Positions 1 through 15,382 of a DNA stretch of 64,000 nucleotides are shown piece by piece (within the stretch, counting starts at the first letter, position 1; the number at the start of each line of letters is the position of its first letter). The notes beneath the pieces are model-generated. The model made no database searches and was not told the origin of the DNA. It worked only from the letters and a program-made list of their open reading frames with translations. Both the position numbers and the translations under genes were made by a program. Source of the DNA: Longimicrobiales bacterium (GTDB lineage: Bacteria > Gemmatimonadota > Gemmatimonadetes > Longimicrobiales > Gaopeijiaceae). Location of the stretch: positions 4,256,001 to 4,320,000 of the forward strand of contig OZ250165.1 in NCBI GenBank assembly GCA_965238005.1, written 5' to 3'.

Positions 1-1622
1 CATGCAGTGGCCACCAAGGCGGCCGTGGACAGGGAAAGGACCCATCCGCGGTGAGACAGCGCCCAGCCCAGGATGGGCCGGTACGCCCAGACGGCCGACC
101 GGTTGACCGGATTGCGGTGCTCTGGCCGTATGTGGCCGCGGATCAAGAATCCCATGAAGACCGGGACGGCCGTGATGGAGAGAAGCGCCGCGGCCGCCAT
201 CGAAAAGGTCTTGGTTAGAGCGAGCGGTCTGAAGAGACGACCCTCCTCCGCCTGCAAGGCGAAGATGGGGACGAACGACAGCGTGATGATCAACAACGAG
301 ACGAAGAGGGCGGGGCCGACCTCACGAGTGGACTGAACGACGACCTCCCAGCGCGGTCGCTCCGGGTGCCGCTCCACGTGCTTATGCATGTTCTCGATCA
401 TGACGATGGCCGCGTCGATCATGGCTCCGATCGCGATGGCAATGCCGCCCAACGACATGATGTTGGCGTTCACGCCCACGGCTCGCGTCCCGGCCAGGGC
501 CAGCACGATCCCGAGCGGGAGAATGGCGATGGCCACCGCGGCGCTGCGCGCGTGTAACAGGAAGATCAGGCAGACGAGCGCCACCACGATCGACTCCTCG
601 ATCAGCGTTCGGGTCAGGGTGGCGGTGGCCCGGCGGATCAGGGAGGAGCGATCGTAGGTCGCGACGATGCTCACTCCGGGTGGCAGCCCCGTCTCGATCT
701 CTTCGATCTTTTCCTTAACGGCGTCGATGACTTGCAGGGCGTTCTCCCCATAGCGCATCACGACCACCCCTCCCACGGCCTCTCCCTGGCCGTTCCACTC
801 CGTGAAGCCGAGCCGCATATCGGGACCGATGGAAACGCGGGCAACGTCTGCGACCCTGACGGGAGTTCCTCTTCGGCCAGCTCCGACGGCCAGATCCGCG
901 ATGTCGCCCACCCCGCGTAGGTACCCGAGTCCACGGACCATGTAGTCGCCTCCGGCCACCTCGACCGTGCGTGCTCCCACATCGGTGTTGGAGGATCGGA
1001 TGGCCCGCACCACCTCATCGGCCGTGACTCCGAAGCCCAGGAGCTTGGCAGGATCCAGGATCACCTGATACTGCCGAACGAACCCGCCCACGCTGGCCAC
1101 CTCGGAGACCCCGGGGACGCTCTGAAGCTCGAATCGGATACGCCAATCCTGTAGAGAACGGAGCTCGTCCAAGCTGTATCCCTCCCCCACCACTGCGTAC
1201 TGGTAAACCCATCCCACTCCGGTAGCGTCCGGACCGAGCTGCGGCCGTACTCCCTCTGGCAAGTCACCCGACGCCGAGTTGAGATACTCGAGCACTCGGC
1301 TTCGGGCCCAGTAGAGGTCGGTCCCCTCGTCGAACAGCACATAAACGAAGGAGAGGCCGAACATGGACTGACCGCGAACGACCTCCGCCTCGGGAACCGC
1401 CAGGAGCGCGGTCACAAGGGGATAGGTGACCTGATCCTCCACCACCTGGGGCGCCTGGCCAGGATACTCCGTAAAGACGATGACCTGCACGTCGGACAGG
1501 TCCGGGATGGCGTCGATCGGTATTGTTCGCACGACCTGGACTCCCGCCGCCAGGATCCCGAATACGCCCAAGAGGACCCACCCACGCCAACGGACGCACG
1601 TCTCGACGATCCAGCCGATCAT
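1..1622 (-). CDS. cusA: CusA/CzcA-family heavy-metal RND efflux permease, N-terminal part (runs off window)
   Basis: ATG at 1622 overlaps the upstream stop (ATGA). Translation MIGWIVETCVRWRGWVLL...IPIDAIPDLSDVQVIVFTEYPGQAPQVVEDQVTYPL is the CusA N-terminal signature. Confidence 0.93.
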   Translation of the reverse strand, partial: MIGWIVETCVRWRGWVLLGVFGILAAGVQVVRTIPIDAIPDLSDVQVIVFTEYPGQAPQVVEDQVTYPLVTALLAVPEAEVVRGQSMFGLSFVYVLFDEGTDLYWARSRVLEYLNSASGDLPEGVRPQLGPDATGVGWVYQYAVVGEGYSLDELRSLQDWRIRFELQSVPGVSEVASVGGFVRQYQVILDPAKLLGFGVTADEVVRAIRSSNTDVGARTVEVAGGDYMVRGLGYLRGVGDIADLAVGAGRRGTPVRVADVARVSIGPDMRLGFTEWNGQGEAVGGVVVMRYGENALQVIDAVKEKIEEIETGLPPGVSIVATYDRSSLIRRATATLTRTLIEESIVVALVCLIFLLHARSAAVAIAILPLGIVLALAGTRAVGVNANIMSLGGIAIAIGAMIDAAIVMIENMHKHVERHPERPRWEVVVQSTREVGPALFVSLLIITLSFVPIFALQAEEGRLFRPLALTKTFSMAAAALLSITAVPVFMGFLIRGHIRPEHRNPVNRSAVWAYRPILGWALSHRGWVLSLSTAALVATA

Positions 1623-2824
1623 CGTGCGCCCTCCCTTCTGTCCGCGCCACTCGTCTCCATTCCATCCATGTCCATGCCGCCCATTTCCATGCCGCCCATG
1701 TCCAATCCCATCCCCATGTCGAGCATGATCCCGGCCAAAGCGGCGGCCAGACTGGACTCCGAGTCGAAGAGGAAGGTCGCGGATGCCACTACGGTGTCTC
1801 CCACCGCGAGTCCGTCCGTGACGAGGAGTGTGGAGTCACCACGCATGCCGACGGTCACCGGAGCTGGAACGATGCCGCCGCCTCTCACCACGAAAGCCAG
1901 GTCTCGATCCCCTGTGGGCAGCACCGCGGTGAGCGGCACGATTGTCCCGCGGGGCGTTCGGGCCCGAATCCGCACGGTCGCGTACATCATGGGCTTGATT
2001 TCGCCGGCCGGGTTGGGCAATTCGATCCGTACCCTCAAAGTGCGAGTGTCTTCTTCGAGCGTTGGATACACCAACGAGACGCGACCCTGGTAGGAGCGCC
2101 CCGGTCGGGCTTCGAGGGTGACCTCGGCCGGCTGGCCGACAGCCACGAGATCCACATCCTGCTCGAAGATCTCGGCCTCGATCCACAGTGTCGAAAGATC
2201 GGCGATCCGGTAGAGATCCTGGCCGGCTTCGATTCGCTCGCCCTCGAGAACGAATTTGTCGAGAATGTGACCCGAGAACGGCGAGAAGATCGTCAGCGTC
2301 TCCCGAACCGCCCCCGTGCGCTCGATCTCGGTGATGAGCGAGTCCGCGATTCCCCAGAGCGCAAGGCGACGGCGAGCTCCGACGACCATCGAGTCAGCGC
2401 CTTGGAGACCTCCCAGTCGAAGGGCCAGAAGCAGCTCCTCCTGGGCGGTGAGCAGATCGGGCGCGTACAGCTCGAAGAGAGGGTCGCCGGTCTGCACGTG
2501 CCGGCCTGTCTCATCGGCGTGGAGCACCTCAATCCAGCCACCCACTCGGGCGTTCACGATGCCGGTTCGCCCCTCGTCGGGCACCACCGTGGCCACCGCC
2601 CGCACCGTTCGGTCCAGTTCGGCCTCCCGAACCACGGCAAAGCTCACTCCGGCCAGAGAAGCTTGGCGTCCCGTGATCCGCATGGGTCTCCCGTCCATCT
2701 GCATGTTCTCCTGGGCGGAGGCGGAGTCCGGGCTCGCGCCTGTTTCAGTCTGGGGAGCTTCGCTCCCGGTACAACCACCCAACAGGAGCACGGTGGTCAG
2801 GGTCGTCGTCGTTGAGCGCATCAT
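1619..2824 (-). CDS. cusB: CusB-type RND periplasmic adaptor subunit (lipoprotein)
   Basis: Lipobox LGGC; motifs GWIEVL..G..V..GDPLFELYAPDLLTAQEE, YPTLEEDTRTLRVR, KPMMYA; Met-rich tail; lies between tolC and cusA. Confidence 0.9.
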   Translation of the reverse strand: MMRSTTTTLTTVLLLGGCTGSEAPQTETGASPDSASAQENMQMDGRPMRITGRQASLAGVSFAVVREAELDRTVRAVATVVPDEGRTGIVNARVGGWIEVLHADETGRHVQTGDPLFELYAPDLLTAQEELLLALRLGGLQGADSMVVGARRRLALWGIADSLITEIERTGAVRETLTIFSPFSGHILDKFVLEGERIEAGQDLYRIADLSTLWIEAEIFEQDVDLVAVGQPAEVTLEARPGRSYQGRVSLVYPTLEEDTRTLRVRIELPNPAGEIKPMMYATVRIRARTPRGTIVPLTAVLPTGDRDLAFVVRGGGIVPAPVTVGMRGDSTLLVTDGLAVGDTVVASATFLFDSESSLAAALAGIMLDMGMGLDMGGMEMGGMDMDGMETSGADRREGAR

Positions 2825-4104
2825 CGGTACCACTCCTCTCCGGTCAGCGCGGCCAGCTCCGCCCGTTGCGTCCCGAAGCGGGACACGACATGAGCGAGAT
2901 CCAACTGGACACGATAGAGTTCGTCCTGGGTTTCGAGTACGTTGGTGAAGTCGACCTCACCCACCCGGTACTGCTGAAGCGCGGAGGCCGTGGCGGCGGT
3001 TGCCAGCGGCACTATCTCGGTGGCGATCTGTTGAGCCCGGAGCTTCGACGCCTCCAGGTCGGCGAGCCGCGTTCGGACTTCGGCGACCAAGAGGACCGAC
3101 AGATCCACATACTCCTCTTCGGCGGCGGTCAGATCCATGACCGCGGCGTGAGCAAGCGGGGTTTGCTTACGACCCGACCAAAGCGGTAAAGGGATGCCGA
3201 CGCGGGCGGTGACGAACGGCTCTCGGCCGCCAAGGCGGATTCCGGTCTGGAGTGAGGTCATGTAGTCCGGCCGTCCGGCGATCTCGAGGACTGTCGCTCG
3301 GCGTGCCGCACGCTCCACCATAGCAGCAGCCACCTGCAGAGATGGATTTCGCAGCGGGGGTCCCAACTGATCGATCACGGGAACATCGAAGGCCCCTGGG
3401 TCCAGGGCCGGGGTACCGGCCACATCGACCAGTAGGAGCCCCTCGGGAGGCTCGCCCTCTCCCCCCAGTAGGGCTCGGGCCGTCTCGCGGGCGCCGGTTA
3501 CCTCCGCCTCCAGGTCGCGGAGCTCCTCCGAGAGCCTTGCGCGGCGGAGCCGGGCCCGCAAAGCGTCGGTCTGAGGGGCCGCCCCGCTCTGGTACCGAGC
3601 GTCCGTTACGACGACTGCCTGGGCGGCCAGTCCGGCCCGGCCCCGCCACAGCTCCACGGCGGTTTGTGCGAAAGCGAGGCGGTAATAGGCTCTTGCCGCC
3701 TCGGCGGCGAGCCGGGCCTCACGGTCGCCAACCCGGCTGGCGGCCAAGGTGCTGTCCGCCTGGGCCACGGAGGTAGCAGCGCTCCGCTTGCCGCGTGCCG
3801 GGAACGTCTGCGCGAAGCCGATCCCGATCTGGGTCATCGCTTCCGCGTCGAAATCGAAGGAGGGGGCCGGGAGCGACGTGACCCCGAGCGAAAGCGTCGG
3901 ATCGGGAAGAGCGCCGGCCGGACCGATACGGTGCCTTGCCGCCCCCAGGGTGGCACGGCGAGCGCTCAAGCTCGGGTTTTCCTCCAGCACCTTTGCGACA
4001 TAGGTCCTGAGACCCGGCGCATCGAGCGTCGAAGTCTGGGCTGTCACTACCGCCGGCCAGAACAACGGGACCGTGGCGGCAGCTAGATACCTGGCATACG
4101 TCAC
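2821..4104 (-). CDS. TolC-family outer-membrane efflux protein
   Basis: Signal peptide, NPSL...AGALPDP motif, repeated helical OEP pattern; SD GGGGAG upstream of GTG. Confidence 0.88.
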   Translation of the reverse strand: MTYARYLAAATVPLFWPAVVTAQTSTLDAPGLRTYVAKVLEENPSLSARRATLGAARHRIGPAGALPDPTLSLGVTSLPAPSFDFDAEAMTQIGIGFAQTFPARGKRSAATSVAQADSTLAASRVGDREARLAAEAARAYYRLAFAQTAVELWRGRAGLAAQAVVVTDARYQSGAAPQTDALRARLRRARLSEELRDLEAEVTGARETARALLGGEGEPPEGLLLVDVAGTPALDPGAFDVPVIDQLGPPLRNPSLQVAAAMVERAARRATVLEIAGRPDYMTSLQTGIRLGGREPFVTARVGIPLPLWSGRKQTPLAHAAVMDLTAAEEEYVDLSVLLVAEVRTRLADLEASKLRAQQIATEIVPLATAATASALQQYRVGEVDFTNVLETQDELYRVQLDLAHVVSRFGTQRAELAALTGEEWYR

Positions 4105-4199
4105 TGTGATGTGACTCCCCCGCGCAGCCCTTGGCCGCGCGCTCGTAGGTTAGGCGCGGGACACTCCCGCGCTATACGCCTCGTCTTCGGAGAGGGGAG

Positions 4200-4565
4200 C
4201 TACGCTCTGGGAGGTCTCTCGAGGAGAGTGGGGTATTCCAGGGGTGGGTCGGACGGTCCGGTGACTGAAGCCACCATGCGCCTTTGAGGTTCGGGTGGGA
4301 TCTGGAAAGAGGAGGCCGCCGGGCCGGCGTGCGGTACCCCGCATCCGTCCATGGAACAGCACTCTATCGACGAAGCGGCCGGCTGTAGAACCGTATTCCC
4401 GGCATCGGCCATCATGCCCATTTCGTGGACGTCCATCCCCATCCGGCCTAGGACCGTACAGATTCCCGGCCCTGAATAGGGTAGGACCATAGCCGCCAGA
4501 ATGAGCAGGGCGAAGGGCCTTGATCGAGAATGCCGTTGCTTCGCGATGGGGTGGATGCCTTCCAT
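4200..4565 (-). CDS. Small DUF2946/CutF/CruR-like leader protein (signal, Met/Cys-rich, Pro-rich C-terminus)
   Basis: Hydrophobic N-terminus, MGMDVHEMGMM, CCSMDGCG, ends LLERPPRA; directly upstream of the tolC-cusBA operon. Confidence 0.6.
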   Translation of the reverse strand: MEGIHPIAKQRHSRSRPFALLILAAMVLPYSGPGICTVLGRMGMDVHEMGMMADAGNTVLQPAASSIECCSMDGCGVPHAGPAASSFQIPPEPQRRMVASVTGPSDPPLEYPTLLERPPRA

Positions 4566-4679
4566 AATGTGCACAACACCGCACGGCGGGTGGGTGTTCC
4601 GGGCTTGCCCTCCGACATCGAGGGCAACCTTTCGTGTCTGAGCGATTGTCTTGGCGGGCAAACTCCACATCTCCAAATC

Positions 4680-5450
4680 CTACGTCTTGATTTTGTAGCC
4701 GCGTTTGAACAACCGAACGTTCACACCGAAAAGAAACGCTCCGAGAATGAAGACGAGGGCCATGCTGAAAGGGACGTTGACATCAGAGACGCCCAGAAGC
4801 CCATACCGCATCCCGTTAATCATGAAAAGCAGGGGGTTCAAGACGGAGACAGTCTTGAGGAGGTCTGGGAGCATGTGGATGGAGTAAAACACCCCACCCA
4901 AGAAGGTGAGAGGAGTGAGCACAAAGCTGGAAAAGGTTTCCACGTGGTCGAACGTCTCCGCCCAGAGTCCCATCATCAACCCAATAGAGGAGAAAACCAG
5001 GGACACGAAGAACATGAAGTACACGAACACGAAAACGTTGGCCATTCCGACGGGAATAAAGAGGAACGAGACTAGCAGGGTAAGGATCCCCACGACGAAT
5101 CCTCTCATTACGCCCCCCAAAGTGAGCGCCAGTACCATTTCGAAATAAGAAAGGGGGGCAGTCAGTAATTCGGTGATATTGTTGAAGAACTTGGATATGA
5201 GTAGGGATAGGGAGGAATTGAAGTAGGAGTTCGTGATCACACTCATCATGATCAAGCCTGGGATCAGGAACTCTATGTACGACAGTCCATTTACCTCCGG
5301 AATCTGCGAACCGATGAACTTGCCGAACACGATGATATAGAGAACTGAGGAGATCACCGGCGCAACAATGGTCTGCGTGGTGGATTTGGTGAACTTCTTG
5401 GTTTCTCGGCCCAGCAGAGTCGCGAATCCCCTATAATTCGCCACGACCAA
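4680..5450 (-). CDS. ABC-2 type transporter permease (YadH-like)
   Basis: QTIVAPVISSVLYIIVFG, YIEFLIPGLIMM, LTPLTFLGGVFYSI, NPLLFMINGMRYG. Confidence 0.9.
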   Translation of the reverse strand: MVVANYRGFATLLGRETKKFTKSTTQTIVAPVISSVLYIIVFGKFIGSQIPEVNGLSYIEFLIPGLIMMSVITNSYFNSSLSLLISKFFNNITELLTAPLSYFEMVLALTLGGVMRGFVVGILTLLVSFLFIPVGMANVFVFVYFMFFVSLVFSSIGLMMGLWAETFDHVETFSSFVLTPLTFLGGVFYSIHMLPDLLKTVSVLNPLLFMINGMRYGLLGVSDVNVPFSMALVFILGAFLFGVNVRLFKRGYKIKT

Positions 5451-6357
5451 TCTCCGTTAAGTCGATAAAGATGTCCTCCAGGTTGGACCTGGTCACTTCC
5501 TCCCTTTTTACCTCGAGTCCCGCTTTCTCGACATCGCGCAGTATTTCTGCCTTGCTGGCGTGCTCCTCACAGACGATTCGGATCTTGTTGTCATCCAGCA
5601 GGAACGCTTTGTATTTCGCGAGCGGTTGAGGGATGGCTTCTATCGGTTTTGTGAGCGTGATATCCAAGCTGGTCTTGTGTAGCTGCTCAAGCAGATTGTC
5701 CTTGTCATCAAGCGCAATGATGTGTCCGTGGTTGATGATGCCGATTCTCTTGGCTAATCGCTCCGCCTCCTCGATGTAGTGGGTCGTGAGCAGGATAGTG
5801 GTGCCTTGCTTGTTCAACTCCTGCATATGACGCCAAAGGCTGCGCCGCAGCTCCACATCGACACCAGCGGTAGGCTCATCAAGAATGAGGAGTTGGGGAT
5901 TGTGTACGAGGGCTCTTGCGATGAGCAGGCGTCTCTTCATCCCACCAGATAACTCTCTGACGTGCACTTCCCGTTTGGAGGCAAGATCAAACTGGTCCAG
6001 TAGCTCATCCACCCGTTTGTTCGCTTCACGGCGCCGTATGCCGAAGTATCAAGCATAAAACCGCAGAATCTCAGCCACAGTGAAGTAGTCGTCAAAATTG
6101 AACTCTTGTGGCACGAGACCAATTAATTGCCTGGCTTCCCGGTACTCCCCGACGACATCCTTCCCGAAGACCTTGACTTCCCCGTCTTCATAGGTGGTAA
6201 GGCCAGCGAGGATATTGATCGTCGTGCTTTTGCCGGCTCCGTTCGGTCCCAGGAACCCAAAAAACTCCCCGCCCTTCACCTCCATGGAGAAGTTGTCCAA
6301 CGCCCGCACGTCTCCGTAGGACTTGGTCAGTTTCCTGATGGATATTGCAGGTTCCAT
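5431..6357 (-). pseudogene. ABC transporter ATP-binding protein (YadG-like) with one in-frame TGA at 6049-6051
   Basis: Walker A GPNGAGKST, signature LSGGMKRR and LDEP are all in one frame; reads FYA*YFGIRRREA where Gly (AGYFG) is expected. Confidence 0.85.
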
Positions 6358-6389
6358 AGGCAAAGTGGCTCATCGTGAGTCACGGTGTC

Positions 6390-8192
6390 CTACCCCGCGC
6401 AGCACGACAGCTTCGCTACATCCTTGTCGAACGCCTGCGCCGCAAGCTTGATTCCCTCGGACAGCGTGAGGTAGGGATGGAACACCGATGTGAGGTTCTC
6501 GATTGTGAGTCCGAACTGGACGGCGAGGGCCAGCTCGGTAATCATCTCGCCCGCCTCGGAAGCCAGGATATGCGCTCCGACGATCTTCCGTGTGTTCGCG
6601 TCGGCCACGAGCTTGACGAAACCACGCGTGTCGCGCGCCGCAAGCGAGCGCGGCACATGCTCCAGCGGTAACTCTGCGGTCACTGGCTCCCTTCCCTGGA
6701 ACCCGATCTCCTCTTCCGTGAACCCGACCGACGCCACCGCTGGATCCGTGAACGTGACCTTGGGCAATGCTGTGAGATCGAACGGCACGGTATCGCCTGT
6801 GAGCGCGTTCTCGGCGGCTATCTTCCCGCCTAACGCCGCGACGTAGACGAACATTGGCTCACCCGTGACGTCACCGGCCGCGTAGATGTCAGGATTCGCG
6901 GTCTGAAGGTATTCGTTCACGGCGATCTCGCCCTTCTCCCCCAGGGTCACACCGACCTCATCGAGTCCGAACCCCTCGGTGTTGGCGCGCCGGCCCGTGG
7001 CCACCAAGAGCTGCTCGGCCATCAAGGTGCTGGCGCCGCCGTCCTCGCTGAAGTGTACCGTGTAACCCTCGTTCCGCTCGACTCGCTCGATCGTCACTCC
7101 CGGGTGGATTTGCATTCCCTCGGCTGCCAGATACTCGGCCAGCGCGTTCCCTATTGCCGCATCCTCGGCAGGGACGATCCGCGGCAACGCCTCGAGTACC
7201 GTGACCTGCACGCCGAGTCGCAAGAACATCTGGGCCAGCTCGAGCCCGACCGCGCTGGCTCCGATCACGATCAGCGAGGACGGCAGCGTTTCCAGAGCCA
7301 TGGCTGAGGTGCTGTCCAGATATCCCGCCTCCGCGAGCCCCGGTATCGGCGCCGCCCAGGGGGATGCCCCGGTGGTGATGACAAGCTTTCCAGCGGTGAC
7401 CTGGCGCCCGTCAGCCAGGGTGATGGATGTGCCGGAGGTCACCGTTGCCCGTTGCTCGAACAGGGTCACCGCCTCGTACGACTGCAACACGTCGCGATAC
7501 TTCGTCTCACGCATTCCGGTGACCAGTGCGTCTTTGTGATCCCGCACAACTGGCCAATCCGGCTGGCCGTCCGTGGCGGCAATGCCCTGGAACGGGTGAT
7601 GGGTGCGGCGGTGGTTCGCTTCGGCCGCGCGGATCAAGGTCTTTGACGGCACGCACCCCACGTTCACACAGGTGCCCCCCAAGGTACCCAGCTCGGCCAT
7701 CGCCACCCGGGCGCCCAGCTCCGCACCCTTGATCGCGGCGCCGAAGCCCGCCGACCCACCGCCGACGATCACGAGATCGAAGTCACCGTCTCCCCGCGAG
7801 ATTGGCGTGATCGCACCGCGATCCGACCCTGCCCGGATGAAATCACCAACCCCCTCCATCGCCTCGGTGCCCTTTAAGCGCTTGATGTAGTAATCAGGGG
7901 CCTTCAGGAACACTTCTCGGCAATACGGACAACCGCAATAGGGGACTTCCTCTCCGGCGTACTCGAACGTGAAGGTCAACTCTGGTGTTTTTTCCGCTAA
8001 GCAGGTCGGGCATACCACCAGATCCTTGATGCGTCGGACGTGTTGCTCGGGGTCAGGGGCGAACTCGTCGGCGCAATCCTGGCAACAGAAATAGTGTTCG
8101 GTGCCGTCGTGACTGTATGTAGCCGCCTTCTCTTTGCTGATTCCCAGTCTGACCAGGGAACAGCCGCAGTAGGAGCAAATGAGCGTTTTCAT
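6390..8192 (-). CDS. merA: Mercuric reductase with N-terminal tandem TRASH/YHS domains
   Basis: GGGSAG FAD site, GGTCVNVGCVPSK redox centre, HPYLT, C-terminal KLSCCAG; N-terminal CSYCG..YFCCQDC..CPTC..YCGCPYC. Confidence 0.93.
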   Translation of the reverse strand: MKTLICSYCGCSLVRLGISKEKAATYSHDGTEHYFCCQDCADEFAPDPEQHVRRIKDLVVCPTCLAEKTPELTFTFEYAGEEVPYCGCPYCREVFLKAPDYYIKRLKGTEAMEGVGDFIRAGSDRGAITPISRGDGDFDLVIVGGGSAGFGAAIKGAELGARVAMAELGTLGGTCVNVGCVPSKTLIRAAEANHRRTHHPFQGIAATDGQPDWPVVRDHKDALVTGMRETKYRDVLQSYEAVTLFEQRATVTSGTSITLADGRQVTAGKLVITTGASPWAAPIPGLAEAGYLDSTSAMALETLPSSLIVIGASAVGLELAQMFLRLGVQVTVLEALPRIVPAEDAAIGNALAEYLAAEGMQIHPGVTIERVERNEGYTVHFSEDGGASTLMAEQLLVATGRRANTEGFGLDEVGVTLGEKGEIAVNEYLQTANPDIYAAGDVTGEPMFVYVAALGGKIAAENALTGDTVPFDLTALPKVTFTDPAVASVGFTEEEIGFQGREPVTAELPLEHVPRSLAARDTRGFVKLVADANTRKIVGAHILASEAGEMITELALAVQFGLTIENLTSVFHPYLTLSEGIKLAAQAFDKDVAKLSCCAG

Positions 8193-8291
8193 GCTTCACC
8201 TCGATTAGATGCGTGGCCAATGCGACCAGGCCGATCAGGACCCTTCGCCCGGAGCTCCTGGCTCCGGCTCGGGCCTGAGCGGGCAGGGCGG

Positions 8292-8633
8292 CTAATCGAA
8301 TTCGTCCAGCCCCGTCACCGGGAGGCTATCGCCAAGCCCCCATGGAAGGAAGAAGCTCAGGCTCAGTGCGTTTCCTGCCGGGAGGTTGCGCCCGGAGATC
8401 GGGACCCTAGCCCCAAGCTCGAGGAACCCTGATCCGATCGGCATGCCCAGGGTCGGAAACACTTCGAGCATGCTCCTGCGAGCGGACGTGAGGGCGCCGG
8501 AGATCCCGTGCGGGACGGTACAGCTCCCCTGAGCGAGGAGGCCCGACGGGGACAAGAGGGCGGGCAGCAGCAAGCAGCCAAGGGCCGCCGTGGTCGCCCT
8601 AGTCGTGACGATGCTCTGCGTCCTCGGCGTCAT
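8292..8633 (-). pseudogene. Probable internally deleted secreted/outer-membrane protein
   Basis: Signal-like LGCLLLPALLSPSGLLAQ joined directly to a barrel C-terminus-like LELGARVPISGRNLPAG. Confidence 0.35.
8599..8624 (+). repeat. 26-bp direct repeat, copy 1 (ctagtcgtgacgatgctctgcgtcct)
   Basis: 25/26 identical to 13552-13577. Confidence 0.8.
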
Positions 8634-9069
8634 GATCGTGATCGGCACCCGGATCCCCTTCGGCCTGATCCCCATCGCCGGACAGGGCCTGACCCTGAAT
8701 GATCTGCTCGACCGTCGCTTCGAAGCCGGTCATCCGCGTCAGCTCACCGAGAAACTCCTCCGGCGAAGTGACGGAGGCGTCGTATACGACCGAGGCCGCA
8801 CCCGATGGGTACGAGACCCTCGCATCCTCGACTCCCTCCACGCGTCGTAGGGCCACACGGGCCGCTGCGGAGCAACCTACTCAGGTCATCCCCGTCACGG
8901 TGAGGTCGGCGGTCACCAGGTTCGGAATGGTGGCGGTCATCTCCTGGGCCGCCATATCCCCCTCACCCTGGCCGGGCATATCCATGTTCCCGTGAGCGTC
9001 GCTCATCAACTGAGACACGACGAGGACGCCCAGGACCGTGAACGCGCCGGCAAGCTCGAGCTTCTTCAT
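8599..9069 (-). CDS. MerP/CopZ-like HMA-domain metal-binding protein with in-frame UGA (candidate selenocysteine) at 8881-8883
   Basis: ORFs 8881..9069 and 8599..8856 are one frame: signal peptide, then LTVTGMT*VGCSAAARVALRRVEGVEDARVSY..A.VVYD (HMA fold), then a His-rich tail. Confidence 0.8.
8847..8880 (-). promoter_or_regulatory. Candidate bacterial SECIS hairpin just 3' of the UGA
   Basis: GUAG...GGCC-CGUGU-GGCC-CUAC; apical loop with GU starts 21 nt after the UGA; the stems are short. Confidence 0.4.
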
Positions 9070-9088
9070 TTCAAGATCTCTCCGTGGG

Positions 9089-9430
9089 TCAGAGTACCCA
9101 GACCGACCACGTCGGATACGTGCCGAATATCACTGCGATCCCAGTCGCCATCCACAGCAGGCTCCTCATCCATTTCCGCGCTTTGGGATCCGCGCACACC
9201 TTGCCGGGCTCACAGGCCATCTGGTCTTCCCGGTAGAGCATGTAGAATCCGGCCCCGAGCATTACGACCGTCGCGATCAGGAAGTAGGGCCTGAGAGGTT
9301 CGAATCTGGCGGAAAGGCCGGCTCCGGATATACCAACGGTTACGGCGAGGAGGGGGCCGGCGCAGCAGAGGGCGGAGGTGAAGGCCGCCCCGACTCCGCC
9401 GACGGCCGTTAAGATCGTCTTGCCTATCAT
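9089..9430 (-). CDS. merT: MerT-family mercuric transporter
   Basis: SALCCAGPLL, FEPLRPYF, CEPGKVC loop, three TM segments. Confidence 0.88.
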   Translation of the reverse strand: MIGKTILTAVGGVGAAFTSALCCAGPLLAVTVGISGAGLSARFEPLRPYFLIATVVMLGAGFYMLYREDQMACEPGKVCADPKARKWMRSLLWMATGIAVIFGTYPTWSVWVL

Positions 9431-9486
9431 CTATCGAGTTCGCTCCTTCGTGTCAGTCAGCCACCGTGCTTGAGAGCATGGGCTAG

Positions 9487-11089
9487 GAGTCTGCGCCGCA
9501 GAAGCACAGCTGACTGAGCCGAATGGTCATCGAGCCGTCCGCGGCGAGGCGGATCCGGGTGATTGGGAGGTTGAGGACTTGTGTCTGCGACGGATCGGGA
9601 GAGCGGAATGGATGCGTTGGGGGGGGGCAAGAGAGCTACGAGAGCCCTCGCGCCGGCAGATGCGGGTGAACCCTCGTGCAGTCATGCCGCCTGAAGGGTG
9701 TGCAGCCGCTTCACATTGAGTGCCAGGCACACGAGGGTCCACTCGGCCCGGACCTTCTCGAGGCCCCGGAAGCTGAATCGTCGAAAGCCCATCACTTCCT
9801 TGATCCAACCGATGGGCGCCTCGGCCTGCGACTTTCGCCGTGCGTAGCGTCTGCGGCCATCTTCGCTCGCCAGCTTCTCCGCCATGCGGACTTTCGCCGG
9901 ATATTCCTCCTTGTCAACCGTGGGGGCGGCCTTGCCCTCCCGGGCCAGCGCCACATACCCGTCGATGTCTCGCTCTTCCAGTTCCTCGAGATCCCGCTCG
10001 TTGCAATAGCCCGTGTCCGCCAGCACCTGCGCCGGCGTCTCGCCGTACGCTTGCGCCACCGCGTCGACCATGGGCACCAGCTGGCCCTGGTCGCTCGCGT
10101 TGTCCGTCACCTCGGCCCCGACCACCAGCTGGTTCTCCCCCTCCACGACCGTCTGTGCGTTGTAGCACTGCTGGAACCCCTCCGAACTCGTCTTCATGAT
10201 CCGGCTCTCAGGGTCCGTGAAGTTGCTCTGCGCCGCCTCGTCCGGCTCTCCGTACTCCCGCTTGTAGGGCCTGCCGCCCTTCGGGTTGCGCGTCTGCCCC
10301 GGCTTGCGGCCCCGTGCGTCGTCCGCCGCTCTCTGCTCGGCTTCCAGGCGCGCCTTCGCCTCCCGGATCGCCGCCAGCCGGTCCTCGCGCCGCTTGAGCT
10401 CCTCCGGCACCTCGTCTCCGCATGCTTCCTCGCCGTAGCGCTCGTCTTCCGCTTCGTCCACCGCCTCGGCCCTCTCCAACAGCCCCCGGATCTCCGCCTC
10501 CAGCCGAGGCTCCCCGGTCACCATCCGGCCGTAGCTCATCGCCTTGCGCTTGTTCGCGTTCGCCCGAACCTTCGTCCCGTCCACCGACACCCTGCCAAGC
10601 CCCGCCAGCCCCAAGGCCCGCGCGAGCATCACCACCTCCACAAACACCGCCCGGAAATCCCCGAGATGGCGCTTGCGGAACTCGCACAGCGTCCGGTGCT
10701 TCGGGAAGTTCTCCGCCGCCAGCATCCGAAACGCGACATCCTCCTCCAGCTTCCTCGCCATCTTCCGCGACGAGAAGGTGCCCGTCGCATACGCGTAGAT
10801 CAGCACCTTGACCATCATCCGAGGGTCGTACGGCGAGTTGCGCCGCCCGTCCCCCCGGTACCGCCCGTAGAACGCGCTCAGCTCCACCGCGTCCACCAGG
10901 TCGCTCACATGGTGCGCCAAATGACCCTCCGACACCCACTCCCGAAGATCCGGAGGCAGCAACAACATCTGCTCCGGATCGTACGGTCGAAATGTCGTTC
11001 CCATTCACCCCCCTCGGTGATCCGCAAGCCTTCCCAATGCCTTCGCTACCACCAAAGATAGCCGCCGCAGGGTTCTGCGGCGCAGACTC
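9487..11089 (-). mobile_element. IS1182-family insertion sequence with 17-bp terminal IRs and CTAG target duplication
   Basis: gagtctgcgccgcagaa (9487-9503) is the perfect reverse complement of ttctgcggcgcagactc (11073-11089); CTAG at 9483-9486 and 11090-11093. Confidence 0.92.
9682..11004 (-). CDS. IS1182-family DDE transposase
   Basis: YDPRMMVKVLIYAY, SSRKM, VDGTKVRANA, TDPESRIM, ADTGY, EAPIGWIK..GFRRFSFRG. Confidence 0.93.
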   Translation of the reverse strand: MGTTFRPYDPEQMLLLPPDLREWVSEGHLAHHVSDLVDAVELSAFYGRYRGDGRRNSPYDPRMMVKVLIYAYATGTFSSRKMARKLEEDVAFRMLAAENFPKHRTLCEFRKRHLGDFRAVFVEVVMLARALGLAGLGRVSVDGTKVRANANKRKAMSYGRMVTGEPRLEAEIRGLLERAEAVDEAEDERYGEEACGDEVPEELKRREDRLAAIREAKARLEAEQRAADDARGRKPGQTRNPKGGRPYKREYGEPDEAAQSNFTDPESRIMKTSSEGFQQCYNAQTVVEGENQLVVGAEVTDNASDQGQLVPMVDAVAQAYGETPAQVLADTGYCNERDLEELEERDIDGYVALAREGKAAPTVDKEEYPAKVRMAEKLASEDGRRRYARRKSQAEAPIGWIKEVMGFRRFSFRGLEKVRAEWTLVCLALNVKRLHTLQAA

Positions 11090-11926
11090 CTAGCGAATCC
11101 TCGGATTCGGGTATGCCGGCACATCCACCCAGGCACCAATTCCGAAGACACGGCTGAGCCCAATGACCAATCGCACGTTGGCGGCGCCCGCGTCCCATTC
11201 GTCCAAACGGGTCGTGAGTCCCAGGTCGAAGACGCTCACGTTGCTCACCTGGATACGTGTGCCTAGCTCCGCCCACACACGCGTACGGCCGGAGTCAACG
11301 GGAATCTCGGTGTAGAGATCACCCAAGAGGATCCGGCTCCCGAAGCCCATGGGGATGTCGAAGGCGAGGCCGCCCCTCCAGTAGTCATCGTCGTCCATCC
11401 GAGATGCCACCACGTAGCCGCTGTTGGCGTGAAGCCGGAGTCCGCTGGCGAAGCTCCTGGTGAGGATCAGGTCCGCCCCCCAAGCCCAGTCACCACGGGA
11501 CAGATCGCCGCCCACGGGGATCTCGGCGCCAATCTGCACGGCGAACGCCGGCCATGCCCAACTCTCGTGATTGAAGTTGTAGAGGGCATCCACTTCCACG
11601 GCCTCGACCCCGGTCCGTGCCACTCCCGCTTCGTCCTCCGTGGCCGCCTCCAGACCTGCACCGATCTCCAGGTTCCGAAACAGGCCGGTCTCCAACGCTA
11701 AGAGTCCCCGGAGTGCCTTACGCCCGGCTTCCGTCCAAGCGCCCTGCAGGCCCACCTGGAACTCCCATTCCATGTACTTCTTCGGGTACGCGTCGGTGAC
11801 GTGGAGGGGTCGATCGGGATCGAGCGATCGGAAATCCTCCTGTGCCGTCGCATGGCGGGGCGACACCGCGAGTACTGCGACGACAACGAAGAACGACCAG
11901 GGTCGAACCCTCCGCGGGGGCCTCAT
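11090..11926 (-). CDS. Secreted, probable outer-membrane beta-barrel protein
   Basis: Signal peptide ending ATA-QEDFR, alternating beta-strand pattern; ATGA-coupled to the upstream gene. Confidence 0.7.
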   Translation of the reverse strand: MRPPRRVRPWSFFVVVAVLAVSPRHATAQEDFRSLDPDRPLHVTDAYPKKYMEWEFQVGLQGAWTEAGRKALRGLLALETGLFRNLEIGAGLEAATEDEAGVARTGVEAVEVDALYNFNHESWAWPAFAVQIGAEIPVGGDLSRGDWAWGADLILTRSFASGLRLHANSGYVVASRMDDDDYWRGGLAFDIPMGFGSRILLGDLYTEIPVDSGRTRVWAELGTRIQVSNVSVFDLGLTTRLDEWDAGAANVRLVIGLSRVFGIGAWVDVPAYPNPRIR

Positions 11927-12967
11927 CTCCCGCCCGCCTCCGGCCGCAAGGGCATCATGAGCTGGGTCATGGGCACCATCTGGGAATCGGGATGACCCTG
12001 CGGGAGCCACGACCCGTCCGGGAGCTCAGTGGGGACCTGCATAGCGCTCGGTGCCATGACGTGGTCTCCCCCCATCGGCATCCCTGGCGCTACCACGAAA
12101 TCCTGGGTGGCATAAAGCTGATTCCGGAGCATCCGGTCGATCTCGGCCGCCTTTTGCTCCCGGCTGAGATGCTCGTCCACCATGATGTCGTTCGTGACAT
12201 CGTGCATCATGTGGAGGTTGTCGAAGATATGGGCCGCAGCCGGGAACATCTGCGAGAACCGGGGGGCTACCTCTGCCGTCAAGGGCATGTAGTCGGGCGG
12301 ATTCACGAGCACCGAATCCACGAAGAGCGCGATGACCCGGTCAAGCTCTCGGGCCTGAGCTTCGGGGGTGGGCTCCATGAGCGCTTCGTACACGGCCGCG
12401 TGATGCCAGTGATACGACCACAGGATCCCATTGATGCCGGGATACTTCCGGGGGAAGGTCCCGGCCCACGCTCCTCCGCCCAGCATCCAGCGGTGACCGT
12501 ATCCCCGAGTGGAGTACGCCGCGCCGGGGGTCGCCAAGTAATACGCTATGGCCCGCTCCCCCGCCGCCTGCTTTTCCGTCACGTCGGGGTCGGTGAGGAT
12601 GTCGTAGAGCTGGCTGTGGAGGTGATGGGTCCAGTCCATGCTGCGTCCGGTCGGATAGGCGATCTTCGTCCACTGGGGAGCGATGAGCTCGGCAGGCGGC
12701 TCGAACTTGGGCGGATCGATGACCAACCGTCGAATGCGCGCCTCCAACTCCCCGAACGCCTCCGTTGCGTCCTCACCCTTCGTGAGCGCCACCTCGTAGA
12801 TCCCGAAGTGGGCGACGTGAGCGGCGTAAAACGATCGCGCCGCCCTCGTGTGGGTGTCGTAGAACGCGAAGTTGTAGCTCGCCGGGAGGTAGAACTGGCT
12901 GTTACGGGGGGTCACACCCGTGCAGGATGCCATCGTCACGGCAAGGATATAGACAGGAGTACCGCAA
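11923..12967 (-). CDS. His/Met-rich putative metal-binding lipoprotein (apparent frameshift in signal peptide)
   Basis: HVAH, WTHHLH, YHWHH and LHMMHD motifs; open frame 11923..12939; the SD-linked TTG at 12967 is out of frame. Confidence 0.7.
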
Positions 12968-12973
12968 GATTGT

Positions 12974-13031
12974 CTCCTCGTTCAGGTTGGGTTCGAGAAA
13001 GTCGCTTCGAACTCTCAGCCCAAACGAGGAG
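12974..13031 (-). promoter_or_regulatory. SD-sequestering hairpin spanning the leader's PPR codons and the next gene's SD
   Basis: CUCCUCGUU (13023-13031) is complementary to AACGAGGAG (12974-12982); inner stem GUUCGA/UCGAAC. Confidence 0.65.
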
Positions 13032-13380
13032 GGGGAGTCGCGGTCTCCGCCTCGGGTGGCGCTGTGTCATCGAGGTACGCCACTAGAGCGGTCAAGACGG
13101 ACTCGATCGGCTCATCAGGCCGGTCGACGGTAGCCACGACGGCCGCTCCACAGACCGCCATGGCGCACGTGTCCGCGTGCCTCGGCCCCGACGGGTCCGA
13201 GTGGTCACCATGCTCGGAGGGACCCTCTTCTGCTGCTGGCGGTGTCGTCCAGGGCACCGGGTGTCCCATGCTGGTCTGTGACCGCGGCTCTGCGTGTACC
13301 GAGTGAACCGCACAAACGGCCTGGCTGAGCACTGCTCCAACGTAGAAGACCAGAGCGAGTGATGCGGTGGGCTTGACCAT
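13015..13380 (-). CDS. Small DUF2946/CutF/CruR-like leader protein
   Basis: Signal peptide, CAVH, HGDH, HADTCAMAVC, ends ETATPPPRLG. Confidence 0.65.
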   Translation of the reverse strand: MVKPTASLALVFYVGAVLSQAVCAVHSVHAEPRSQTSMGHPVPWTTPPAAEEGPSEHGDHSDPSGPRHADTCAMAVCGAAVVATVDRPDEPIESVLTALVAYLDDTAPPEAETATPPPRLG

Positions 13381-13424
13381 CGGTGCGGTATCGAGCTCCA
13401 GGGCGGGTCGATGAATGCCACGGC

Positions 13425-13486
13425 ACGTGCTGAGTTTACGGTTCTGCTACATACCACCATGCGTCGCCAAAGTCTGAGCTGCAAGG
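13425..13486 (+). repeat. 62-bp dispersed direct repeat, copy 1
   Basis: 57/62 identical to 40369-40430. Confidence 0.9.
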
Positions 13487-13551
13487 CGTCCCGCCTTGAT
13501 CCCACCGCGCCCCGGCCCTCTTGGTGGCTCGCAAACTTCGGAAACGGAACA

Positions 13552-13577
13552 CTAGTCGTGACGATGCTCTGAGTCCT
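13552..13577 (+). repeat. 26-bp direct repeat, copy 2
   Basis: ctagtcgtgacgatgctctgagtcct; 25/26 identical to 8599-8624. Confidence 0.8.
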
Positions 13578-13609
13578 GGAACGGAATAGACGCCACGTGC
13601 CGCCATCAT

Positions 13610-13722
13610 CGAGATGACCTCCTCGACGAATGGATCGCGGATTGGCCGACCTGGTCGACTTCGACGTCTACCCGGTGATCTCCTCGAAACAAGCGCAGGA
13701 AAGGATTGAGGACGAGCTCTGA
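13610..13722 (+). pseudogene. C-terminal remnant of a DUF3303-like protein
   Basis: DLLDEWIADW / DLVDFDVYPVISSKQAQERI with one frameshift. Confidence 0.45.
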
Positions 13723-13843
13723 AATCCACGGCAGAAGCGTCGTGGTTGCCACGCCGGGGACGTCTGACCAGCTTCCGTTTCTCACTCCCGCCACCAGTGG
13801 ACCGTCCACCCACCGCTGAACCCGAGCCAGGAGTCCAGAGATC

Positions 13844-15382
13844 GTGCCCACGCGACGCCCTTCCCGCCTCCACCGATCGGTGCCTTTTCGCTTCTATCGA
13901 GCAGCCCTGGTCACCAGCGCCATGGCGGCCGCCGTCCTCGCCTCGGCCGTTCCGGCCTCCGCACAGTTCGAGGCGGCCCGGGCTCGCATCCAGCGCGCTC
14001 TGGTCGAGGGTGGCGTACCGTCGATCGCTGTCGCTGTGGCTCGGGACGGGCGTATCATCTGGGAAGAGGGATTCGGGTGGGCCGATCGGGAGAGCCGGAT
14101 CCCGGCCACCGAACACACCATGTACTCGCTGGCCTCGATCTCGAAGCCGATCACCACTACCGGGCTGATGGTGCTCGTCGAGCGGGGCGAGATCGATCTG
14201 GACCGACCGATCAACGACTACCTCGGCGCCGCGAAGGTGAATGGCCGGGCGTTCGATGTATCCCAGGCCACGGTCCGCCGCGTAGCGAACCACTCGGCGG
14301 GGCTCCCGCTCCACTTCCAGTTCTTCTACCGGGATGAGCCCTACCGACGACCCGCGATGGACGAGACCATCCGCAGGTACGCCAACCTCATCACCGCACC
14401 CGGGGAGCGTTGGTACTACTCCAACCTCGGCTTCGGCATTCTCGACTACCTGCTTGAGCGCGGCTCAGGGAAGAGCTACCCCGACTTCATGAGGGAGGAG
14501 GTGTTCACGCCGCTGGGGCTGACGCGCATGTCGGTCCACATCGGCCCAGGTCACGATGACCACACGGCCACCCGATATGCTCTCGACGACACGCCCATCC
14601 CGTTCTACGACTTCGATCACCCCGGGGGCTCCGCCGTGTTCTCGAGCGCCCACGACCTCGTGCGCTTCGGGATGTTCCACCTGAAGAACCACCTTCCGGA
14701 CCAGAAGCCGATTCTGTCGGACGCAGCCATCGACGAGATGGCCCGGGGATCCGCAGAGACGACCCGGAACGGGTGGTACGGAGTCGGGTGGCAGATCAAC
14801 GAAACGAACAAGGGCGGCCGGACCGTGCATCACGGCGGGGGCATGGACGGCGTCAGCACACGGTTGGTCATGGTTCCGGAGGGGAACGTGGCCATGGCCA
14901 TCCTGAGCAACGCGGCCAATCCGTGGATCGGCCGGATCGAGCGAGACATCCTGCACGAGCTGTTCCCTGAGTGGTTCGATGCACCCGAGGAGCCGTCGGC
15001 CCCGACACCCGAAGAGCCGACGACCAGCCCGGACTTCAACCCCATGCCCGACCTGACGGGAGACTGGGTCGGATCGGTGGACACCTACGAGGGAGAGCGG
15101 AAGCTCGTGTTGAGCGTGCACGCCAACGGAGCGATGTACGCTCGCCTCGATGATCAGCCCTGGGCGCTCGTGAACGGGATCCGCTTCGAGGACGGCGCCC
15201 TGCAGGGATCGTTCGCGGGTGACATCGGCACCGAGGACGTGAATCGCATGCCGTACGATCTGCTGCTCGACCTGAAGCACCGAGGGAACGTCCTCAACGG
15301 TGGGCTGGTCGGTCGGTCACGGATGACGCCCAAGCGGAGCGGACACGGGTTGACCCACTGGGTGGAGCTCCGGCGGCGGTAG
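13844..15382 (+). CDS. Serine hydrolase, beta-lactamase (class C/AmpC-like) family
   Basis: Signal peptide, SISK (SxxK), YYSN, HGGG. Confidence 0.9.
   Translation: MPTRRPSRLHRSVPFRFYRAALVTSAMAAAVLASAVPASAQFEAARARIQRALVEGGVPSIAVAVARDGRIIWEEGFGWADRESRIPATEHTMYSLASISKPITTTGLMVLVERGEIDLDRPINDYLGAAKVNGRAFDVSQATVRRVANHSAGLPLHFQFFYRDEPYRRPAMDETIRRYANLITAPGERWYYSNLGFGILDYLLERGSGKSYPDFMREEVFTPLGLTRMSVHIGPGHDDHTATRYALDDTPIPFYDFDHPGGSAVFSSAHDLVRFGMFHLKNHLPDQKPILSDAAIDEMARGSAETTRNGWYGVGWQINETNKGGRTVHHGGGMDGVSTRLVMVPEGNVAMAILSNAANPWIGRIERDILHELFPEWFDAPEEPSAPTPEEPTTSPDFNPMPDLTGDWVGSVDTYEGERKLVLSVHANGAMYARLDDQPWALVNGIRFEDGALQGSFAGDIGTEDVNRMPYDLLLDLKHRGNVLNGGLVGRSRMTPKRSGHGLTHWVELRRR

Follow-up and report, generated by a model that had tools for sequence, protein, structure and literature searches.

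A probable mosaic metal-resistance island in a Longimicrobiales genome, with a candidate selenocysteine MerP, a tandem-TRASH mercuric reductase and the stub of a csoR-type repressor gene

The canonical mercury-resistance operon, merR-merT-merP-merA, combines a MerT with four Cys, an exported protein of the HMA fold (MerP) and a mercuric reductase (MerA) with all of its signature residues. Departures from this plan are known: in the accessible part of one survey (PMC3466566), merR was recorded in 195 and arsR in 22 of 272 mer operons, and the TRASH domain occurred only in archaeal mer operons, standing alone in five, and never in bacterial ones. Selenocysteine (Sec, U) has also been recorded in proteins of this kind, as two sequences named 'Mercuric transport protein MerP' in a GOS table (PMC2398784), as an HMA family with the motif GMTUAAU catalogued as 'putative mercuric reductase' (PMC13188914, PMC12013277) and as a mention of Sec-MerT (10.1101/2022.07.06.499078), each in the portions of these sources that were at hand. 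Here we analyze a cluster of mercury and copper genes in a 64,000-nt stretch (the window; G000:C1:4256001-4320000, with negative coordinates for positions left of its start) of the single-contig, 4.84-Mb genome G000 of a Longimicrobiales bacterium. The cluster shares with the canonical operon the four-Cys MerT, an apparently exported HMA protein and the complete MerA, and its relatives likewise carry an Hg-type merR with its operator; it differs in the UxxC motif of its MerP, in the tandem TRASH domain of its MerA and in a csoR gene that its sub-lineage used and that is now lost. We consider it probable that the cluster is a mosaic metal-resistance island of separately mobile modules, whose mer module lost a csoR-type repressor.

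Every gene of the cluster is encoded on the minus strand, in the order given by an earlier, preliminary description; this co-oriented run of open reading frames (ORFs) was thereby confirmed, and the expected family matches were found. The features on either side of merT are:
11090..11926, minus strand: predicted outer-membrane barrel, C-terminus intact; weak Phenol_MetA_deg match (E=0.023)
9483..11093, minus strand: insertion sequence (IS) of the IS1182 family, 1611 bp, CTAG at both ends
9457..9486, minus strand: 3' stub of a csoR/rcnR-family repressor gene, LAHALKHGG and stop; intact orthologues in loci L079 and L085
9089..9430, minus strand: merT, with Cys22/23 and Cys73/79; PF02411, 69.4 bits against a cut-off of 32.9
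8599..9069, minus strand: MerP-like HMA protein with an N-terminal hydrophobic segment, predicted U63-x-x-C66 and an acidic His tail; UGA at 8881-8883
8851..8863, minus strand: hairpin GGCC-(5 nt)-GGCC, resembling a Sec insertion sequence, at +21..+33 from the UGA
8292..8600, minus strand: transporter-gene remnant (barrel type) in the gap from merP to merA, 44-49% identical over 45-58 aa to two sites elsewhere in the genome
6390..8192, minus strand: mercuric reductase whose N-terminus is a tandem TRASH/YHS domain (11 Cys) instead of the HMA-type NmerA; TIGR02053 and YHS matches

The barrel and merT genes are separated by the IS1182 element, present in the genome as 43 full and 2 partial copies. 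All of the full copies are bounded by CTAG on either side, and matching ends therefore cannot prove that the two flanks were formerly adjacent. The barrel stop codon falls within the CTAG target, and 52 nt lie between it and the merT ATG when the IS is discounted. The preliminary description had put this distance at about 55 bp; the spacing stands, but the spacer is not plain intergenic DNA, since it starts with the last nine codons of a csoR-type gene. Among the nine closest merT loci (80-87%), a whole PF02583 (CsoR/RcnR) gene lies directly upstream of merT in L079, where it ends in LAHALRHSG and stop, and in L085 (LAHALRHGG and stop). These are the two closest merT loci that retain a regulator, and in the merT tree both fall within the window's own clade (support 99/96). 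The same stub without the gene body is found in L050 and L084, and the other five loci have neither stub nor gene. The pattern LAHAL[KR]H has a single match in the six-frame translation of the genome, at the junction; elsewhere in G000 there was no csoR orthologue, only a 32-35% paralogue, and a genome-wide search for the missing 5' part beside another IS copy did not find it. The regulator of this sub-lineage was thus not MerR but a CsoR-like protein that has since been lost, and where the preliminary description had the regulator absent by design, the stub shows a secondary loss.

In run X2 of a second study, one contig is identical to the window over 8381-9486 and continues for 510 further nt without a piece listed on the window, which would fit an IS-free allele with a different upstream gene. 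L050 and L084 carry their stubs without any IS, so the loss of csoR recurs in the clade, and L083 has only an operator-like dyad upstream of merT. An orphan stretch at G000:C1:1255652-1255722, between two IS elements and with no gene behind it, matches the promoter/operator of the L079 csoR gene at 81% identity.

The gene order was compared in two surveys. The first covered 400 other genomes of the class, in 34 of which the barrel was matched. At the best 19 other loci, the barrel is paired with the lipoprotein gene that precedes it in the window (19/19), and merT never follows within 1.5 kb. None of 26 other barrel loci runs into merT; one of them also holds a merT, and the barrel there is a 30% paralogue pointing away. 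The second covered 400 other genomes of the order, with merT matches in 49 (a tally that takes in the unpublished G468, whose sequence was not used), and was read at the best 29 genomic loci and the best 80 of 312 metagenome loci. The gene upstream of merT in the genomic set was of the merR family in 11, merA in four, csoR in one, an HMA gene in one and unrecognised in 10, with two loci too short; the metagenome set gave merR 49, csoR four, another metal gene three, unrecognised 11 and too short 13. In relatives, an ordinary merR of the Hg type, with its operator, frequently heads the merT-Sec-merP-merA module. The genome G662 has the same modules reordered, with leader 2-tolC-cusBA convergent on merR-merT-Sec-merP-merA, followed by a copA block. 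The full gene order of the window was found in no other locus examined, and the barrel-merT junction is IS-bounded; the conserved supercluster of the preliminary description did not survive this comparison.

That description had in effect proposed one evolved, co-transcribed Hg/Cu super-operon in which leader peptides stand in for a transcription factor. Co-orientation and short gaps agree with such a system, the first leader sequesters a ribosome-binding site, and regulator-less mer operons are reported from Aquificae in the accessible part of PMC3466566. Some of our data also tell against the mosaic: with all genes co-oriented and no clear promoter before merT, read-through co-transcription could occur; a tolC homologue accompanies merT at 20 of 121 loci, so mer and copper modules do cluster; the same ABC pair as in the window follows TRASH-merA in L092; and a 91% lipoprotein is encoded 2.2 kb downstream of Sec-merP in L141. 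A consensus scan for sigma-70 promoters found none before merT on the minus strand, and one weak match in a second scan was not used as evidence. Against the super-operon stand the csoR stub at the junction, two broken internal genes and a gene remnant in mid-cluster, and the synteny by itself already largely refutes it. In addition, stalling leaders like CutF target the ribosome-binding site of the gene that follows them, according to the part of PMC9973294 consulted, and leader control of merT is therefore not expected. We regard the super-operon as quite improbable. The Aquificae operons, like ArsR-led ones, share with the mosaic island mer genes without merR; in the window this lack is secondary, and the regulators tabulated in the available portion of PMC3466566 include none of the CsoR type. 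What stands of the non-canonical mer system originally described, with its modules swapped, is the Sec-MerP and the TRASH-MerA, but not a single regulator-less, co-regulated unit.

The preliminary description had also stated that no merR or cueR lies in the window. A PF13411 search found four MerR-type genes in the genome and none of this family inside the window, but the best of them, a metal-type merR (TIGR02051, 102 bits against a cut-off of 150.85), lies just outside at -1887..-1492, convergent to cusA, 19 nt from its end, and divergent from a P1B ATPase gene. With a matrix derived from the pair of dyads in this gene's own promoter, operator dyads were located at -4860, -2023 and -1942, the first scoring 27 bits against 16 for the next best site in the genome, whereas 1..14000 held no operator (best 4.1 bits, rank 944 genome-wide). 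Since dyads occur at the copA genes and not in 1..14000, this MerR would govern copA and its neighbours and not merT, and it was rejected as a controller of the mer or cus genes. The Hg-MerR operator pattern occurred in seven of the eight relative loci tested and nowhere in G000, so a MerR operator driving merT, the alternative that the earlier text had itself raised, was not found. The island extends leftwards over -7525..-1492 (L018) with the merR-family regulator, the P1B ATPase, a barrel transporter, a permease and an HMA protein, a part kept at 64-89% in L020, L092 and L170. The case illustrates how an IS and the edge of a window can give an operon the appearance of lacking a regulator.

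In the gene behind merT, a TGA codon stands in frame where the HMA motif (GMT-U-VG-C) would have its first Cys. When the TGA is read as U, the product has 156 residues, a hydrophobic N-terminus and the motif GMTUVGC. The genome was searched for the selABCD set named in the preliminary description, and selA, selB and selD (above cut-off) are present together with a tRNA-Sec. The motif at the 29 genomic merT loci is UxxC in 21 and CxxC in three, with no motif in two and a cut in three. After duplicates and rows without a following AR/AG were removed, 39 UGA and 15 Cys sequences remained, and the hairpin at +21..+33 forms 4/4 pairs in 39/39 of the former versus 5/15 of the latter, fractions that come from sequences related by descent and are not a statistical test. 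In the UGA set, the third codon positions of the hairpin are nearly fixed, with two compensatory swaps from G-C to A-U. The selA gene occurs in 19 of 21 UGA genomes versus two of six Cys genomes.

Two observations weigh against Sec: the hairpin alone is not unusually stable compared with shuffles (z 0.4-0.95), and two of the 21 UGA genomes, 88% and 95% complete, have no selA. The UGA might be no more than a stop or a lesion in a pseudogene, leaving the HMA gene dead, a reading that draws on the damage to nearby genes. Arguing the other way are the recurrence of the UGA at this Cys position across 39 distinct loci, the open and conserved domain downstream, the fixed synonymous positions within the hairpin and the distribution of selA; a dead gene is very improbable indeed. 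The recurrent UGA, the hairpin and the Sec machinery support the candidate Sec chaperone of the preliminary description, and the UGA very likely encodes selenocysteine. A single origin of Sec was considered and no claim is made, as the MerT tree, though it needs 4-5 changes, has few columns and 24 open forks.

The protein scores below the curated cut-offs of NF041115 (63.5 against 95 bits) and TIGR02052 (39.1 against 92.55 bits) and is MerP-like in its position and fold without scoring as a family member. It shares the HMA fold and Sec at GMT-U with the catalogued Sec-HMA selenoproteins (the UxxU 'putative mercuric reductase' of NF041115, the GOS MerP and the MerT/CopZ fusion NF045683), but has UxxC and an N-terminal hydrophobic segment, lies below the NF041115 and NF045683 cut-offs, and belongs to a type found in merT-merP-merA operons across many genomes of a single order. 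No description of a UxxC MerP within such operons was found in the literature listings and abstract openings searched or in the accessible parts of PMC1976440 and PMC13326102; BSepDB and bioRxiv supplements may already hold such proteins.

CsoR is classically a Cu(I) sensor, and the merT-Sec-HMA pair, with its CsoR, might be mainly a unit for the uptake or buffering of copper or other soft metals that was recruited to merA in some genomes only. Consistent with this, in L160, the closest genomic locus, HMA and barrel genes come after merT-merP and there is no merA in 13 kb, and nine of the 21 genomic UxxC loci have neither merA nor merR within 1.5 kb, so the pair may serve other metals too, a count that weighs against a purely mercury-related role. 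However, 10 of these 21 loci have a merA no more than 1.5 kb away and seven have a merR-family gene upstream, the upstream regulators read in relatives have the Hg-type CPIL ending and operator, and all four Cys of MerT are kept. A pair that mainly serves copper or other soft metals is unlikely, if less so than the preceding alternatives.

MerA scores 550.7 bits on TIGR02053 (cut-off 454.45). All of its signature residues are present, judged by the redox Cys pair, the C-terminal Cys-Cys and the equivalents of Tyr264 and Tyr605 as given in the part of PMC3466566 consulted: C175/C180, C597/C598, Y232 and the Tyr of FHPYLT, 23 residues before the Cys pair. Its N-terminus gave no HMA match for an NmerA, a domain that is common but not obligatory, and matched YHS instead at residues 21-52 (repeat 1, 34.2 against 30.3 bits). 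Both TRASH repeats have the pattern CxxC...FCCxxC with invariant Cys, and the first 120 residues are modeled as two repeats with a predicted local distance difference test (pLDDT) score of 86. Structural similarity is weak: residues 2-58 align with 1fyz (Z 4.6, root-mean-square deviation (rmsd) 3.3 over 54), and residues 53-114 with the 62-residue 60S ribosomal chain 7qiw_Y, which we take to be eL24 (Z 3.9, rmsd 3.6 over 53). The TRASH-MerA of the preliminary description is thus borne out by the MerA score, the YHS match and the two-repeat TRASH-like model.

Among the tandem-TRASH homologues, 18 of the 20 long ones are MerA fusions, from Gemmatimonadota, Bacteroidota and Desulfobacterota records; 325 matches span 66-210 residues, about 125 in most of those listed, and some may be fusion fragments at contig ends. 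The domain is rare in the phylum sample (one of 400 other genomes), and merT is included in three of six distinct fusion loci. In L020, merR-merT-Sec-merP stands upstream of TRASH-merA, and in L021 TRASH-merA follows the copA regulator. A tandem-TRASH fragment comes after merB in L176. On the well-studied mercury plasmid pMR68 (L177, 4727-5086), an unannotated stand-alone tandem-TRASH ORF lies right behind the organomercurial lyase gene; the plasmid paper (PMC3737084) does not name it in the part consulted. An uncharacterised membrane protein adjoins TRASH-merA in L020 (8960-9950), L022 and L151, with a small exported protein in two. No bacterial TRASH-MerA fusion was found in the literature searched, including the accessible portion of PMC8261052. 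The Sulfolobus MerH of archaeal mer operons shares a TRASH-type Cys domain linked to MerA; the window differs in having two repeats fused to a bacterial MerA, where the tandem domain may play an NmerA-like role.

The remaining features of the cluster are:
13015..13380, minus strand: leader 1, an upstream ORF (uORF) resembling CutF/CruR (DUF2946); weak Pfam DUF2946 match (E=0.21), hairpin z=-5.4, same arrangement in G011
11923..12967, minus strand: lipoprotein rich in His and Met, outside any known family but with 194 homologues at E<=1e-10; start one base out of frame in the assembly
4680..6357, minus strand: ABC-2 ATPase and permease; ATPase with an in-frame TGA at 6049-6051
4200..4562, minus strand: leader 2, a CutF-like uORF with a hydrophobic segment and CCxxxGC, ending ERPPRA; orthologues upstream of tolC
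1..4104, minus strand: tolC-cusB-cusA heavy-metal RND pump; cusA continues to -1473

Several of these genes show decay. The in-frame TGA splits the ABC ATPase where the 88%-identical homologue of L092 has GGA, and the ABC pair has a GC content of 52% against 63-67% in neighbouring genes. The likely TTG start of the lipoprotein (12967) is one base out of frame relative to the 96% homologue P0221; in run X1, which may be the source, there is an allele one base shorter at 12949 (depth 14.4 of 27.9), and a contig of run X4 matches the window. Comparison with L141 had suggested a loss of 19 nt from the lipoprotein signal peptide, a reading that was dropped because the 96% homologue and the run data point to one extra base. 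The gap between merP and merA is 406 nt and contains the transporter-gene remnant. Beyond the cluster, a dispersed repeat of ~70 bp at 13487-13555 has ~70 matches in the genome (87-98% identity), and two tRNA arrays of ~17 genes each lie at G000:C1:1035994-1037821 and 4451264-4453598.

Both leaders have the features of CutF-like sequences: an export signal (by eye), a Cys/His motif, a C-terminal Pro-rich motif and fewer than 150 aa. Leader 1 has a hydrophobic N-terminus and CxxxxC and ends in PPPRLG, compared with PEPEGPPPRL for CutF in the part of 10.1101/2025.02.05.636593 consulted. Its final codons form pairs with the ribosome-binding site of the lipoprotein gene, as in G011, and masking of a ribosome footprint raised the unpaired probability of that site from 0.0 to 0.1-0.35 in both. 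Leader 1 scores 12.8 bits on PF11162 (cut-off 23.7) and leader 2 has no Pfam match; orthologues of leader 2 (42-52%) lie upstream of tolC in G662, G665 and G016, and a stem-loop switch in leader 2 found no support in a folding test of four loci, which showed no consistent opening. The DUF2946 uORFs CutF (Rhodobacter) and CruR (Bordetella) share the export-type N-terminus and the Cys motif ~40 residues before a C-terminal Pro run, and their stem-loop over the next ribosome-binding site has a predicted counterpart in leader 1; the window leaders differ in lying below the Pfam cut-off, in their Cys spacing (CxxxxC and CCxxxGC) and, for leader 1, in heading an uncharacterised lipoprotein. Outer-membrane efflux genes are the commonest neighbours of CutF-like ORFs in the accessible parts of PMC9973294 and PMC9426467. 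Of the leader-peptide control proposed earlier, what stands is that both leaders fit a known class of metal-sensing uORFs, but they head lipoprotein-barrel and tolC-cusBA, not merT. The leader-lipoprotein-barrel module (11090-13380) is widespread, often near copper genes. The lipoprotein, with 10 His invariant among 72 aligned homologues and many Met, is modeled as helical (pLDDT 91); Foldseek gave no match at E<=0.001 (best Z 5.3, rmsd 4.8 over 130), a negative that does not show a new fold. An Atlas search returned unnamed clusters only (<0.9). The protein is a candidate for a new copper-handling family.

For the mosaic island, we propose that the mer module (merT, Sec-merP, the remnant and TRASH2-merA) was formerly led by a csoR-type repressor gene and its promoter, and that an IS1182-bounded deletion or rearrangement removed both and placed the barrel gene upstream of merT, which would now be driven by read-through from the IS or the upstream operon, or be poorly expressed. 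An exported or anchored MerP would bind Hg(II) with a selenolate-thiolate pair and pass it to Cys22/23 of MerT, within which it would cross to Cys73/79; the tandem TRASH domain would then hand it to Cys597/598 of MerA and on to the Cys175/Cys180 centre for reduction to Hg(0). Lipoprotein-barrel and tolC-cusBA would be two probable copper modules, each headed by a CutF-like stalling leader.

A csoR-family gene lies directly upstream of merT in L014, L063, L079, L085, L094 and L139, with merA following in L014 and L079. Such csoR-led loci possibly represent a third class of mer regulator. Three findings are the most likely to last, as far as sequence comparison can carry them: Sec-MerP in mer operons across the lineage, a MerA with a tandem TRASH domain, and merT loci led by csoR. 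Each is a variation on a known kind. The TRASH2-MerA fusion gives a candidate role to an unnamed family of ~125 residues that is also sited beside merB. UGA-bearing merP genes are likely annotated as truncated, which would hide merP in surveys of marine genomes. Mercury binds selenolates far more tightly than thiolates, which raises the question of how Sec at the first ligand of MerP releases Hg to MerT, and natural Sec/Cys pairs of MerP exist for biochemical comparison. More tentatively, this marine lineage may run true mer operons with Sec-MerP, some with a tandem-TRASH MerA and some under an Hg(II)-sensing repressor of the CsoR family. If so, CsoR would be a third class of mer regulator beside MerR and ArsR, and selenium would scavenge mercury at trace levels yet still release it to the thiols of MerT.

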